A DNA stretch of 24,825 bases, taken from contig CAYZNE010000002.1 of the NCBI GenBank assembly GCA_964478955.1, positions 1 to 24,825 on the forward strand. Direction: 5' to 3'. The notes beneath the pieces are model-generated. The model was not told where the DNA came from and made no database searches. It saw only the letters and a list, made by a program, of their open reading frames with translations. Origin of the DNA: an uncultured Methanosarcinales archaeon. GTDB lineage: Archaea; Nanobdellota; Nanobdellia; Woesearchaeales; CAYZNE01. Made by a program: the position numbers and the translations under genes. This document shows, one piece after another, positions 8,827-21,495 of the stretch; the stretch's first letter is position 1; the number at the start of each line of letters is the position of its first letter.

Positions 8827-8854
8827 ATGCCAATAACTAAATGTTATTGAGCAT
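8827..8854 (+). repeat. Bulged-A hairpin element, copy 3
   Basis: ATGC CAATAAC TAAAT GTTATTG A GCAT, followed by a T tract. Confidence 0.8.
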
Positions 8855-8879
8855 TTTTTTAAAACATAAAGGTGAAAAC

Positions 8880-9275
8880 ATGAACAGAAAAACAAGTTTG
8901 TTAATAATATTATTATTAATAATAATACTTTTAGGAATACTTAATTTGATGTGGCTTACAGATATAAAAGATTTTGATTCTGAGTTTAATAGAGAATCTT
9001 CTGTTCCTAAGTTATCAAATCAAGTTGTAAGAACAGTTTATATGACTCAACATCAAGATAGACTTTACCCTGAAACAATTACTGCAAATAAAGGTGAGTT
9101 TTTAATACTTAGTTTTGCAGATAAGAATGCAACAACTTTAGAAATACCAGGTTATGATTTTACTCAGACAGTTAAACTTTATAATTTTGAACTATTTTTA
9201 GCTAATAAAGGAACATTTGAGATATATTGTCATAATTGTCCTGATAAATCTCCTGCAGTCTTGATTGTTGAATAA
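8880..9275 (+). CDS. Membrane-anchored cupredoxin-like domain protein
   Basis: Start ATG 8880 after GGTGA (the track start at 8841 lies inside hairpin copy 3). One N-terminal TM helix; PETITANKGE and GTFEIYCHNC resemble Cupredoxin_1 strands and the C-terminal Cys/His loop. Confidence 0.65.
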   Translation: MNRKTSLLIILLLIIILLGILNLMWLTDIKDFDSEFNRESSVPKLSNQVVRTVYMTQHQDRLYPETITANKGEFLILSFADKNATTLEIPGYDFTQTVKLYNFELFLANKGTFEIYCHNCPDKSPAVLIVE

Positions 9276-9286
9276 CCTGGTTAAAC

Positions 9287-9319
9287 GGTGCCAATAAAGT
9301 TTTTATCTTTATTGAGCAT
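9287..9319 (+). repeat. Bulged-A hairpin element, copy 4
   Basis: GGTGC CAATAAAG TTTTTAT CTTTATTG A GCAT, starting 12 nt after the 9275 stop. Confidence 0.8.
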
Positions 9320-9333
9320 TATTTTTTTATTTT

Positions 9334-9389
9334 TTGCAAGAAAGTTTACGAATACTTTAACTTTTAAGTTAAAGATGCGTTTCTTGCAA
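9334..9389. repeat. Nested inverted repeat / long imperfect hairpin
   Basis: TTGCAAGAAA...TTTCTTGCAA (10 bp) enclosing CTTTAACT-TTTA-AGTTAAAG (8 bp). Confidence 0.65.
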
Positions 9390-9435
9390 GTTCAAAAGTT
9401 TGGTTTTCAAATTTTTGTTATTTTCTTCTTTTCTT

Positions 9436-9452
9436 AAAGAAATCTTTATAAA
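9436..9452 (+). promoter_or_regulatory. BRE/TATA promoter of tRNA-Ile(UAU)
   Basis: AAAGAAATC followed by TTTATAAA ending 28 nt upstream of the tRNA. Confidence 0.6.
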
Positions 9453-9479
9453 TAGTTTATTTCTTCTTAACTTATAGAA

Positions 9480-9589
9480 GAGTCCGTAGCTTAGTCCGGT
9501 GGAGCGCTGGTCTTATATGGCCAAATCTCGTTTTAGAGGTTTTGTTCTAAGCTAGCCAGTGGTCGGGGGTTCAAATCCCCTCGGACTCA
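9480..9589 (+). tRNA. tRNA-Ile(UAU) with 36-nt intron (9518-9553) at canonical 37/38
   Basis: Acceptor GAGTCCG/CGGACTC; anticodon stem CTGGT/GCCAG; spliced loop CT-TAT-AA. BHB motif: central helix CTTA/TAAG with two 3-nt bulges (TAT, CTA). Body almost identical to tRNA-Ile(GAU) at 11949. Confidence 0.92.
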
Positions 9590-9717
9590 TTTTTTTTAAT
9601 GAGTTTGTTTTTGGGGTTTGAACTTGTTCCTTTGGTGCAGGAAATCTTTATTTTCCGCACAAATCCCCTCGGACTCATTTTTTTTAATGAGTTTGTTTTT
9701 GGGGTTTGAACTTGTTC
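9572..9717 (+). repeat. Perfect 58-bp direct repeat x2 (9572-9629, 9660-9717) starting in the tRNA T-loop
   Basis: CAAATCCCCTCGGACTCA-T8-AATGAGTTTGTTTTTGGGGTTTGAACTTGTTC occurs twice, period 88. Confidence 0.93.
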
Positions 9718-9734
9718 TGTAGAGTTTTGCTCGA

Positions 9735-9793
9735 GGCACCAAAAATTTTTGATTTTTGAGGGCTTATGGCACCAACAGCAAGCTGTTGAGTAC
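9735..9793 (+). repeat. Bulged-A hairpin element, copies 5 and 6 in tandem
   Basis: GGCAC CAAAAAT TTTTG ATTTTTG A GGGC (9735-9763) and GGCAC CAACAG CAAG CTGTTG A GTAC (9768-9793). Confidence 0.75.
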
Positions 9794-9795
9794 AT

Positions 9796-9811
9796 AATCC
9801 CCTCGGACTCA
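9796..9811 (+). repeat. Third copy of the tRNA-Ile 3' end (att-like)
   Basis: AATCCCCTCGGACTCA, identical to 9574-9589. Confidence 0.9.
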
Positions 9812-9890
9812 CTTCCTTTTCTCAGGCATTTGAAAATAAGATATTTAATCAGAAAATATTATATAGTAAGACTTCTCAGTTAAGTAGTAT

Positions 9891-10688
9891 ATGAAGAATA
9901 AAGAGATATTCAATTGGCTAGTAAGAGAACATGTTGGTAGAGATTGGATGAATGTAAGACCCTATGTTAGAGAAGGAGTTTTAGGCTCAATGAAAGTTGT
10001 CCCTGGAAATACAGAAAATCCTTATTATGGGGGAATTTTAATTTTTGCAAAAGGAAAAAGGTTTGCAGCCAATCTTAAAAAGATGAATATTGTACTTGTA
10101 GGGAAAATGAATGTTTCTTATAATATTTCTACATTTGATAGATTTAGCAGATACTGCAAGAAGTTTCGTGTTGAAGACGGTGCAACCGTTATAGATAAAA
10201 ACAATGCTTTTGCATACTATATTTCTGTGTTTAATAATAATCCTCAGATATTCTGGACATTTAAAGAAAGGTGGGATTTTGCATTTAAAGGAATATACAA
10301 AATTTACAAGATTGGAAAGATGCTTCCATCTGATTTCAAAGACCATAAAGGACTAAATAAAGTTGGCGAATCAATGGATTTGATAGGAAATAAAACTTAT
10401 GTTGCCATTGTTCTCCCTCAAGCTTATCCAAGGGTTCATACATTTCAAATAAAAAGAACTGCATACACTCCTCTTGGAATGGGTAAAGTAACTCATTTCG
10501 ATAGTGAAGGATTGTTAGAAGAATTTTATCTTGTGTACATGCCTAGTTACAAAGGAGAATTTCTAGACGCAAAACACAAAGTTGTTGGCATCTACAGGTA
10601 TTATGATAGAAGTAGAGGAGTAAAAAAGATATTCCGAAGAGAATTGATTATTGGGTGCAGTGATTTGAAACAGATTGGGATGAATTAA
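9891..10688 (+). CDS. Hypothetical protein, possible divergent DAC (DisA_N-like) fold
   Basis: GGILIF strand, EDGATVID (DGA motif), LIGNKTYVAI where DAC enzymes have LGxRHxAA. Overlaps tatD by 4 bp, convergent. Confidence 0.5.
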   Translation: MKNKEIFNWLVREHVGRDWMNVRPYVREGVLGSMKVVPGNTENPYYGGILIFAKGKRFAANLKKMNIVLVGKMNVSYNISTFDRFSRYCKKFRVEDGATVIDKNNAFAYYISVFNNNPQIFWTFKERWDFAFKGIYKIYKIGKMLPSDFKDHKGLNKVGESMDLIGNKTYVAIVLPQAYPRVHTFQIKRTAYTPLGMGKVTHFDSEGLLEEFYLVYMPSYKGEFLDAKHKVVGIYRYYDRSRGVKKIFRRELIIGCSDLKQIGMN

Positions 10689-11802: not shown

Positions 11803-11806
11803 TAAA

Positions 11807-11881
11807 TGCTCCGAACGGGATTCGAACCCGTGTCCTCGGATCGAAAATCCGAGATGATTGACCGGACTACACCATCGGAGC
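11807..11881 (-). tRNA. tRNA-Glu(UUC)
   Basis: Acceptor GCTCCGA/TCGGAGC, anticodon arm TCGGA-TTTTCGA-TCCGA, T-loop TTCGAAT; CCA not encoded. Confidence 0.96.
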
Positions 11882-11948
11882 AAACTCTCGTAACTAATTG
11901 GATTAAACTTCTATTTAAAAGCTTTTTGAAATTAGTAGAATTATAGAA

Positions 11949-12022
11949 TGAGTCCGAGGGGATTTGAACCCCCGACCACTCGATTATCAGTCGAGCACTC
12001 CACCGGACTAAGCTACGGACTC
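11949..12022 (-). tRNA. tRNA-Ile(GAU)
   Basis: Acceptor GAGTCCG/CGGACTC, anticodon arm CTCGA-CTGATAA-TCGAG, T-loop TTCAAAT. Confidence 0.96.
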
Positions 12023-12023
12023 A

Positions 12024-12099
12024 TGGCGCCTCTGGTCAGAATCGAACTGACGACCTGTCGGTTAACAGCCGACCGCTCCAGCCGCTAAGCTACAGAGGC
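12024..12099 (-). tRNA. tRNA-Asn(GUU), CCA encoded
   Basis: Acceptor GCCTCTG/CAGAGGC, anticodon arm GTCGG-CTGTTAA-CCGAC, ends G-CCA. Confidence 0.96.
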
Positions 12100-12147: not shown

Positions 12148-14211
12148 TTATTCAAAAACACTACTTATAATTTCTTCAGCATTAAACTTCTTTAAATCTT
12201 TATATTCTTGCCCTGTTGTTATGAATAATATTGGTTTTTCAGTAACATGACTTATTGAGATTGCTGCACCACCTTTCTCATCAATGTCTGCTTTTGTTAG
12301 AATGATTCCATCAATACCAACTGATTTATTGAATTCTTTTGCCTGTTCAACACAATCATTACCAGTAATACTTTCCCCAATAAAGATTTTCATATTTGGA
12401 TTTACTACTCTAATAACTTTTTCAAGCTCTTGCATTAAATTAGAGTTGCTATGTAATCTTCCGGCAGTATCTATCAAAACCACATCTACTGATTTTGATT
12501 TTGCATGTTCTATTGTATCATATGCGACTGCAGCAGGGTCTGCACCATAGTCATGCTTGATTAACTTAGTATTAAGATTGTTTGTGTGTTCTTCTATTTG
12601 TTGGATTGCTGCAGCTCTAAATGTGTCTGATGCTGCAACCACGCATGTTAAGTTATTGTCTTGGAAATATTTTATTAATTTTCCAATTGTTGTTGTTTTC
12701 CCTGAGCCATTAACCCCAAGCATTAATATTTTGTAAGGCTTTTCTGAAGTTTTTATTTTTTCAATTAAGTCTATTGGTTCATAACCAAACAGAGACTCTA
12801 TTGTTTGTCTTAAATTGTTCAGGATTATTTCATCTATAGATCTTCTTGTTACCTTTGTGTTCTCTAGTTCTTCTTTAAGATTGAATTTTATTTTTTCAAT
12901 AACTTCTACTGCAACATTATTTTCTAGAAGTGCAACTTCAAGGTCCCAGAATAATTCATCAAATTTCTCATCTGTAATATTTAATTTTATTATCTTTTCT
13001 GACAGTTTTTTGAAGATTCCCTTTTTCTTTTGTGTTGGATCAACAAGTTTTTCTTTTTTATCTTCCTTTGCTTCTTTAACATGAACTTCTTCTTGTATGT
13101 GGGGTTTTTCAAGAGCAGGAAAGTCTTCTTTTTTTAGTAAATCTTTTTTCTTTTCAATGTGTTTTTCTACTTTCTGAGTTATTTTGTATTCCCAACCTGG
13201 TTGCCATGCTTTTCTTAATCTCCAATCTTCTGCTAGTGCTTGTGTCCAAGTTTTATTATTTAGAAGAACTTCTATTGCTAGTTGAGAATATCTGTGTGCG
13301 GCAATAGCTATGTGTTTTCCTTTGTATTTTTTATATAAGTCATTAAGAAATTTTCTTATTCTTGCAGTTACCTCGTTGTAACTTTCGCCTTTTGGATAAT
13401 TTTCATATATAGGATTATGATCTTTTTTGAATTCATTAAGTTTTGACTTATGTTGACCATTTAGTTTTCCATAATCACATTCTCTTAATCTTTTATCAAC
13501 AATTGTTTCTTTATCTGGCCAAGTTATATTTGCAGAATCAATTGCTCTTTTTAGATCTGAAGTGAATATTTTATCAAAATCATATTTTGTTTGATTAATT
13601 AATTCTTCAGATTGAGTTATTCCTAGTGCAGATAGTTCTGTTGAGTTTTGCCCCGTACATACACCTGCTTCATTATCTTTTGTTGTTCCGTGAACAAAAT
13701 AAGTTATATGCACTTCGTTTTCTGGAACTTGTTTTTTAATTTTAGTTGTTTCTTTAATTTCTTCAATTATGGGTTTTGGAGCTTCTTCAATAACTTCTTC
13801 CTTTGACTTTTCCTTTGGCTCTTCAATAACTGGTTCTTCTTTAATCTCTTCAACCTTTTCCTCTACTTCTGGTTCGGGAACAGGAACTTCTTCAACAATT
13901 TTTTTTATTATTTCCTTTGGCTCTTCAATCACGGGTTTTTCTTCAACCTTCTCTTCTTTAACTGCATCTTCAGCGTTAATCTTTGCTTGCTCTTCTGCAA
14001 TCTCTTCCTCAATAGATTTAATTTCTTCTGGTTGTTCCTCTTTTTTCTTTTTAGAAAATACTTTTTTGAAAAACCCCTTTTTCTCTTTTTCCAATTCTTG
14101 TTTTTCTTCTTCACTAATTTGATCTTCAGAAATAGTTTTAGCGTCTTCTACTATTTCCTCAGCTATTTTTTCTGAGGTTTCTTTTATTTTCTTTTTTAGG
14201 AAGCCAAACAT
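12148..14211 (-). CDS. ftsY: SRP receptor FtsY with acidic N-terminal region containing an inserted histidine-phosphatase domain
   Basis: C-terminal NG GTPase: GVNGSGKTT, DTFRAAA, DTAGR, TKAD, GGA. Residues ~167-344 carry FVHGTT, TSDLKRA, RLRECDYG, PKGES, IAAH. Confidence 0.93.
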   Translation of the reverse strand: MFGFLKKKIKETSEKIAEEIVEDAKTISEDQISEEEKQELEKEKKGFFKKVFSKKKKEEQPEEIKSIEEEIAEEQAKINAEDAVKEEKVEEKPVIEEPKEIIKKIVEEVPVPEPEVEEKVEEIKEEPVIEEPKEKSKEEVIEEAPKPIIEEIKETTKIKKQVPENEVHITYFVHGTTKDNEAGVCTGQNSTELSALGITQSEELINQTKYDFDKIFTSDLKRAIDSANITWPDKETIVDKRLRECDYGKLNGQHKSKLNEFKKDHNPIYENYPKGESYNEVTARIRKFLNDLYKKYKGKHIAIAAHRYSQLAIEVLLNNKTWTQALAEDWRLRKAWQPGWEYKITQKVEKHIEKKKDLLKKEDFPALEKPHIQEEVHVKEAKEDKKEKLVDPTQKKKGIFKKLSEKIIKLNITDEKFDELFWDLEVALLENNVAVEVIEKIKFNLKEELENTKVTRRSIDEIILNNLRQTIESLFGYEPIDLIEKIKTSEKPYKILMLGVNGSGKTTTIGKLIKYFQDNNLTCVVAASDTFRAAAIQQIEEHTNNLNTKLIKHDYGADPAAVAYDTIEHAKSKSVDVVLIDTAGRLHSNSNLMQELEKVIRVVNPNMKIFIGESITGNDCVEQAKEFNKSVGIDGIILTKADIDEKGGAAISISHVTEKPILFITTGQEYKDLKKFNAEEIISSVFE

Positions 14212-21223: not shown

Positions 21224-21495
21224 GTAGGTAAGTAGCTAACTTTCGCTCTTAGAGTGAGGAAAGTCTGCCCACCATAAAAGGTCAGCACATATGTGTGTCT
21301 TGAAAAGGACGGCAACCACTCAGAAACGGTACCTCTTGAGTGCAGAATGATGGATTAAATCCTGACATTGCTTAAGGATGGTTGAAACGGTGAGCCCTGA
21401 CTGGTGCAAGTTGTATAACGCTTAGTAGAATGTTAGCAAAGTTCATCCAAGCTTTGGCTTTGGGACTTACAGAAGGTAGCTTATCGCTTGCCTAC
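21224..21495 (+). ncRNA. rnpB: RNase P RNA (archaeal, short)
   Basis: P1 GTAGGTAAG/CTTGCCTAC, GAGGAAAGTC, AGAAAC, TGAAAC, GGTGCAAG, TAGAATG, ACAGAAGGTAGCTTA; P4 CTGCC/GGTAG; TATA-like TTTAAAAA about 22 nt upstream. Confidence 0.93.

Follow-up and report, generated by a model that had tools for sequence, protein, structure and literature searches.

An apparently functional isoleucine tRNA gene with anticodon UAU and a predicted bulge-helix-bulge intron in a probable DPANN archaeon

The locus and its surroundings

The window, by which we mean the whole 24.8-kb stretch of DNA that was analysed, is a segment of archaeal chromosome with 31% GC. Its open reading frames encode GyrA, an AglB/STT3 homologue, FtsY, prefoldin, eIF6, FttA, a proteasome subunit and AspRS, and a full-length archaeal RNase P RNA lies at 21224-21495(+) (Rfam RF00373, 143 bits). 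Contigs identical or nearly identical to the window come from 'salt lake metagenome' runs and from JGI/ENA assemblies. The host is most likely a DPANN archaeon of the Woese-/Pacearchaeota type, a placement made by similarity and not by phylogeny. On the forward strand, positions 9480-9589 hold what is apparently a real and functional isoleucine tRNA gene with the anticodon UAU (Table 1). The two flanking open reading frames (8841-9275 and 9891-10688) had no match in Pfam, NCBIfam or PDB families, and a permissive Rfam scan of 9280-9900 gave no other credible family beside tRNA.

The Rfam tRNA model (RF00005, positions 1-71) covers the gene end to end with 55.6 bits, against a gathering score of 29 (E = 1e-9), and places a 37-nt insert in the anticodon loop. 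The gene goes undetected by ARAGORN at default settings, and a tRNA-Ile(tat) with a 36-nt intron is called when the intron option (-i) is switched on. The anticodon occupies 9514-9516, and A73 is at 9589. Outside the anticodon arm, a single mismatch, at D-stem position 25 (C versus U), separates this tRNA from the intron-less tRNA-Ile(GAU) encoded nearby; within the arm, the two differ at base 34 and at stem pairs 29:41 and 31:39. The gene therefore combines the traits by which a tRNA-Ile is recognized: an NAU anticodon after predicted splicing, A73, and a body in common with the tRNA-Ile(GAU) of the same genome.

Table 1. Features of the tRNA-Ile(UAU) locus and its intron-less paralogue
Feature	Position	Strand	Description	Basis
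TATA-like box	9445-9454	+	TTTATAAATA; putative archaeal promoter, 26-35 nt upstream of the mature 5' end	sequence
5' exon	9480-9517	+	tRNA positions 1-37: acceptor strand, D arm, anticodon-stem 5' strand (9507-9511), C32-U33, U34-A35-U36, A37	Rfam alignment, ARAGORN -i, sequence
Alternative hairpin	9508-9523	+	positions 28-32, UGGUC (9508-9512), with intron nt 2-6, GGCCA (9519-9523); loop UUAUAU	fold and covariation
Intron	9518-9553	+	36 nt, canonical 37/38 site; internal 7-bp hairpin at 9523-9542	MFE and partition-function folds
3' exon	9554-9589	+	tRNA positions 38-73: A38, anticodon-stem 3' strand (9555-9559), variable loop, T arm, acceptor strand, A73; no CCA encoded	
T8 run	9590-9597	+	putative archaeal terminator, directly after position 73	sequence
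tRNA-Ile(GAU)	11949-12022	-	intron-less paralogue with the same body	within Asn-Ile-Glu tRNA cluster

Several observations bear on whether the gene is in use. The decamer that forms its TATA-like box is also found ahead of the Asn-Ile(GAU)-Glu tRNA cluster, at a distance of 24-33 nt. Of the nine population contigs, all those that span the gene whole have it in identical form. In the DNA of four metagenome runs, the depth over the intron equals that over the flanks, and no intron-less allele was found; one DNA-read 'joint' across the intron was considered as a candidate for such an allele and rejected, being the tRNA-Ile(GAU) paralogue laid on the locus. Finally, AUA is used 43.7 times per 1000 codons in the window's 19 long open reading frames, which is twice the frequency of AUG and 44% of all Ile codons, and this argues that the gene is needed. 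No RNA run was found to contain the locus, and we infer from the sequence that the tRNA is expressed, spliced and charged.

Near-identity to the body of a tRNA-Ile(GAU) gene only 2.4 kb away, together with an 88-nt insertion that duplicates the tRNA 3' end just downstream, could also be expected of a pseudogene, that is, of a decaying or recently arisen tRNA-Ile(GAU) duplicate without a role. However, all stems are intact, the gene has a promoter-like box and a terminator of its own, and orthologues with compensatory changes are present in over 100 species, in many cases with the synteny conserved. Given these facts and its invariance in the population, we hold a pseudogene to be very improbable.

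The downstream insertion itself consists of a 58-nt direct repeat (9572-9629 and 9660-9717), made of the tRNA's final 18 nt and the 40 nt that follow, with a unique 30-nt insert (9630-9659) between the copies. The 88-nt unit is missing from contigs L001 and L007 and is thus polymorphic in the population; L002, which starts inside the tRNA, also has a single copy. It could be a scar of integration or excision, or a duplication. Its likeness to an integration scar is what would suggest that the tRNA is part of an integrated virus or plasmid and not of the core genome. Against this stand the housekeeping neighbours listed above, RNase P RNA included, and the synteny with FtsY that is conserved in relatives. 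The tRNA 3' end was not found on viral contigs, so that an integration origin of the repeat is unsupported, and we give a mobile origin of the gene hardly any credence.

Splice register and relatives of the gene

The minimum free energy (MFE) fold of the precursor has -43.7 kcal/mol (z = -4.2), and none of 200 shuffles was as good. In it, the anticodon stem (9507-9511 with 9555-9559) is followed by a central 4-bp helix, CUUA/UAAG, in which C32-A35 (9512-9515) pair with the 3' part of the intron (9548-9551). The central helix is bordered by two 3-nt bulges on opposite strands, UA|U at 9516-9518 and CU|A at 9552-9554, beyond which lies the intron helix. The predicted fold thus has the full bulge-helix-bulge (BHB) arrangement, with flanking helices h and h'. 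Archaeal introns are cleaved after the second nucleotide of each bulge. When this rule is applied, 9518-9553 is removed and the mature loop becomes C32-U33-U34-A35-U36-A37-A38. The register chosen by ARAGORN lies one base to the right, and leaves the anticodon UAU with U38 instead of A38.

Helix h', beyond the 5' bulge, is short (2-3 bp) and has two possible registers. That of the MFE fold leaves C9547 unpaired in a 3x1 internal loop, and the strict hBHBh' register (G9519-C9547, G9520-U9546) has a low predicted probability. Across 150 homologues, the anticodon stem is paired in 100%, the central helix in 96.7% and the first pair of h' in 95%; the anticodon stem shows compensatory changes, and the BHB geometry is conserved. 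The first-pass annotation had proposed a UAU anticodon, A73, a body like that of tRNA-Ile(GAU) and a canonical BHB intron spliced in this register. The Rfam match, the ARAGORN -i call and the alignment with the paralogue bear out the first three, and the predicted fold agrees with the last; a shift to the ARAGORN register would not alter the anticodon.

How widespread is such a gene? We scanned one genome per species for the pattern CTTATA, 8-38 nt, TRAG, 16 nt, GGTTCRAATCC, and obtained at least 120 matches. ARAGORN's intron mode was erratic on these homologues (68 of 120 found), and introns were therefore removed by the BHB rule and the tRNAs called again. Among the 120 matches listed, 96 then gave a clean tRNA-Ile(tat) and about 17 more were judged by eye to be this gene, either carrying a second intron or truncated at the end of a contig, which makes about 113 intron-bearing tRNA-Ile(UAU) genes; the other 7 are chance matches. 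The position-73 offset is occupied by A in 117 of 121 pattern matches (the 120 listed loci and the window). Almost all record titles among the matches listed are those of DPANN archaea (Woese-, Pace-, Nano-, Micr-, Aenigmat-, Alti-, Undin-, Parv- and Iainarchaeota), and the complete genomes AR10 and AR20 are there as well. The closest mature sequences among them belong to Woesearchaeota-labelled MAGs (L046, L013). The earlier description of the tRNA as rare is therefore not supported: the intron-bearing tRNA-Ile(UAU) is the rule in DPANN archaea, and rarity holds only for cultured archaea.

The neighbourhood is also shared. In ten of the listed loci, an FtsY with 51-61% identity to that of the window is encoded at a distance of a few kb from the UAU tRNA; most of the ten have a run of Val, Gly and Ile(UAU) tRNAs, often followed by Glu(UUC). 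This conserved neighbourhood of FtsY/prefoldin and the tRNA cluster points to vertical inheritance of the gene. In relatives near FtsY (L010, L021, L037, L099 and others), the intron-bearing tRNA-Ile(UAU) occupies the slot adjoining tRNA-Glu(UUC), as part of a Val-Gly-Ile(UAU)-Glu cluster. The corresponding slot of the window, 11806-12099(-), holds the intron-less tRNA-Ile(GAU) with its near-identical body, and Ile(UAU) is found 2.4 kb away on the opposite strand; this suggests that the two Ile genes were rearranged or have undergone gene conversion with each other.

Two further details of this region deserve mention. In the product of the FtsY gene (12148-14211(-), 687 aa), the SRP54 N and GTPase domains are preceded by a histidine-phosphatase domain (His_Phos_1, residues 174-307), and tblastn matches to the FtsY of relatives span only some 300 C-terminal residues. 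At 12020-12030(-), tRNA-Asn(GUU) ends in an encoded CCA and tRNA-Ile(GAU) begins one base later; no CCA is encoded in the window's Ile and Glu tRNAs.

A number of the homologues carry, besides the 37/38 intron, a second intron in the D arm, the 5' strand of the anticodon stem or the T loop (L011, L012, L023, L055, L069, L080, L083, L085, L087, L093, L097, L107, L109, L116, L126, L129, L132, L158, L175, L194, L210, L225, L227, L243, L244, L246 and L249). One of them, L023 (CP070655.1), is a 1.14-Mb chromosome labelled 'Candidatus Omnitrophota bacterium' with a twice-interrupted tRNA-Ile(UAU) of archaeal type, and DPANN-like versions of the gene occur in many binchicken MAGs labelled 'uncultured Methanosarcinales archaeon'. 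The taxon labels of L023 and of these MAGs look unreliable.

The intron and its predicted pairing with the 5' exon

The question arises as to whether the intron is needed. For a sample blind to the intron, metagenome contigs were scanned for the 5' half only (an archaeal-type D arm, then NNNNNCTTATA), which gave 115 complete matches. A cleanly parsed 37/38 intron of 17-87 nt was present in 76 of them, and about 12 more had an additional second intron; in total, about 88 of the 115 (~77%) are intron-bearing and about 25 are intron-less. Some of the intron-less genes have an encoded CCA and could be of bacterial origin. Another four (L130, on Ga0075120_10015965, L134, L135 and L204) share about 90% identity or more with spliced DPANN genes, and their contigs have 28-34% GC; the sample that yielded L130 also yielded L001, the contig that carries the window locus. 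The intron is thus not kept wherever the tRNA occurs, as about 25 of the 115 genes, close DPANN relatives included, lack it.

Beyond the splice motif and nucleotides 2-5, the intron sequence is not conserved, and its length varies from 14 to 87 nt. A full box C (RUGAUGA) was found in none of 164 distinct homologous introns, and a loose UGAUG...CUGA pair in 3 of the 164. The window intron contains neither UGAUG nor CUGA and matches no Rfam family besides tRNA. A guide RNA was defined by a box C/D or H/ACA motif and at least 8 nt of complementarity to a target; no such motif is present here, and complementarity is limited to 4-5 bp. The intron of haloarchaeal pre-tRNA-Trp, a box C/D guide (cited in PMC11408192), resembles ours in its 37/38 site and in an exon pairing that competes with the BHB, but it has box C/D motifs and guides of about 10 nt. 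Neither endA, tiaS, tRNA-Ile(CAU) nor a gene for a pseudouridine synthase or other modification enzyme was found within the 24.8-kb window. With introns missing from about 25 of 115 genes, no guide motif, a variable sequence and no modification-enzyme gene nearby, we regard the intron as common but dispensable, and as no classical guide.

A further feature stands beside the splice motif. Nucleotides 2-5 of the intron are complementary to tRNA positions 32-29 across DPANN phyla (loci L010-L249), and in the window five pairs can form, giving a hairpin (Table 1) that is incompatible with both the anticodon stem and the BHB fold. We counted the four pairs in 150 distinct homologues, aligned without gaps: they can form in 97, 93, 91 and 69% of the sequences, or 87.3% overall. 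Shuffled controls give 78.5 +/- 0.8%, with none of 500 as high as the real alignment, and sliding the partner gives 13-48%. Cells in which both partners have changed number 42, against 15.2 +/- 3.2 expected, and the co-varying variants (GCU/AGY, CGU/ACG, UGU/ACA, AGU/ACU) are seen also between closely related sequences. In the same loci, 24 other tRNAs with a 37/38 intron (Glu, Gly, Ala, Arg and others) show no such complementarity.

Three other origins of the complementarity were considered and rejected. It could be a by-product of h', but the intron's own helix is less conserved than the alternative one, being paired in 95, 73, 44 and 52% of the 150 homologues at its four positions. It could follow from the two-fold symmetry of the BHB, but its register is off by one from the symmetry-equivalent positions. 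Finally, nucleotides 2-5 could be a copy of positions 39-41 made at the DNA level, but G-U is frequent at 29:intron-5 and never occurs at 29:41, which points to pairing in RNA rather than to copying of DNA.

Alone, the alternative hairpin has -6.6 kcal/mol, versus -17.5 for the BHB arm, and as the weaker structure it would exist mainly in the nascent transcript. We conjecture that it could act as a co-transcriptional placeholder, or as a handle or shield for an enzyme that acts on the UAU loop before splicing. In a bolder form of this conjecture, the Ile(UAU) intron would carry, besides the splice motif, a second conserved element, a hairpin that displays U33-A37 in a 6-nt loop and serves as a precursor-specific switch or handle, such that a pre-splicing enzyme possibly acts on UAU or is kept off it. 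We consider this bolder form unlikely.

More broadly, the intron might be required before splicing for a modification of U34 or U36 to be installed or blocked. In yeast, the intron of tRNA-Ile(UAU) lets Pus1 make pseudouridine at 34 and 36 and blocks the Elp-made ncm5U34 (PMC11408192), and a haloarchaeal tRNA-Ile that has U34 but no intron receives cnm5U, and binds and misreads AUG (PMC3895270). Both precedents, the ~77% of archaeal-type tRNA(UAU) genes that have an intron in the intron-blind sample, and the covariation of nucleotides 2-5 with positions 29-32, found in Ile(UAU) introns only, are in favour of such a role. However, the intron-less homologues, four of them close to spliced DPANN genes, the lack of guide-like motifs and of another Rfam family, the otherwise free variation of sequence and length and the absence of a modification-enzyme gene nearby all argue against it, and we consider a required intron unlikely. 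The initial proposal that the intron may template the modification of position 34 is weak: in its favour is the exon-intron helix found in Ile(UAU) introns, and against it are the same variability and losses and the 164 introns devoid of a full box C.

Reading AUA with a UAU anticodon

Precedents exist for a UAU tRNA in place of the usual route to AUA, as the first-pass annotation had noted. ARMAN-2, -4 and -5 have tRNA-Ile(UAU) and lack both tRNA-Ile(CAU) and TiaS (Fujishima et al. 2011, PMC3239211), and Nanoarchaeum equitans and Korarchaeum cryptofilum have tRNA-Ile3(UAU) in place of tRNA-Ile2(CAU) (PMC8450103). [quoted passage not shown] The Korarchaeum gene bears an intron and otherwise matches the tRNA-Ile(GAU) of its own genome (PMC6000648).

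The likeness to ARMAN is close: both cases concern a DPANN archaeon, a UAU anticodon and a 37/38 intron in an hBHBh' fold. The ARMAN-2 intron has 25 nt, however, versus 36 nt here, and cleavage in vitro belongs to ARMAN-2, whereas splicing is predicted here. The present host is Woese-/Pacearchaeota-like, with 31% GC, from a salt lake, and the absence of TiaS and tRNA-Ile(CAU) is a feature of ARMAN. Korarchaeum shows the same pattern of an intron-bearing gene whose spliced sequence matches its own tRNA-Ile(GAU), but is not a member of DPANN. Eukaryotic tRNA-Ile(UAU) has the same anticodon and a 37/38 intron that pairs with it, and this intron is widely but not universally kept; there, however, splice sites are set by a ruler mechanism without a strict BHB, and intron-dependent modification is shown, whereas it is conjecture for DPANN.

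An alternative is that the gene is functional but redundant, the genome also keeping tRNA-Ile2(CAU) and TiaS, so that AUA would be decoded independently of it. The content of the 24.8 kb is compatible with both genes lying elsewhere in the genome. Such redundancy would nevertheless be at odds with the ARMAN, Nanoarchaeum and Korarchaeum genomes, which do without tRNA-Ile(CAU) (and, in ARMAN, without TiaS; PMC3239211, PMC8450103), with the small and streamlined genomes of DPANN archaea, and with the very frequent use of AUA in the window. We find it distinctly unlikely. By analogy with these genomes, the tRNA-Ile(UAU) most likely replaces the route through tRNA-Ile(CAU) and TiaS-made agmatidine.

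We therefore return to the reading of 9480-9589 as an expressed gene for an AUA-reading tRNA-Ile3(UAU) of a DPANN-type archaeon, probably of the Woesearchaeota or Pacearchaeota kind, to which we assign a probability of roughly 0.85. Transcription would start from the gene's own TATA-box promoter and terminate at the T8 run. In the precursor, C32-A35 would pair with the intron's UAAG, so that each splice site falls within a 3-nt bulge and four base pairs separate the two bulges. The archaeal splicing endonuclease would cut after A37 and before A38, an RtcB-type ligase would join the halves, and CCA would be added. The mature tRNA, with its A73 and tRNA-Ile(GAU) body, would be charged by IleRS and would read AUA, the codon for 44% of isoleucines, in a 31%-GC genome.

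Misreading of AUG by the haloarchaeal U34 tRNA implies that accurate decoding needs an adaptation that is not visible in the window. In Mycoplasma mobile, AUA is read by a tRNA-Ile(UAU) with unmodified U34 (PMC3575796; discussed in PMC3895270), and by this analogy an unmodified U34 can suffice in a co-adapted system. There, as in other bacteria without TilS, a UAU anticodon reads AUA without a modified C, as would be the case here; however, the system is bacterial, has no intron, and differs in its IleRS and ribosome context. U34 of the archaeal tRNA could accordingly be unmodified in a co-adapted tRNA/ribosome context, as in M. mobile, or could be a modified U such as pseudouridine.

As it stands, the gene is one more example of a described solution to the AUA/AUG problem. 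[quoted passage not shown] Loss of the intron in about one fifth of the genes provides natural intron-plus/intron-minus pairs (L130, L134, L135 and L204 on the minus side), which address how U34 is kept from AUG without agmatidine, and whether, as in eukaryotes, the intron contributes to this. The exon-intron helix found in Ile(UAU) introns offers a concrete element for mutation. If its proposed role were true, accurate discrimination of AUA from AUG would be tied to the long-noted tendency of UAU isoleucine tRNAs to have introns, in archaea and eukaryotes alike.
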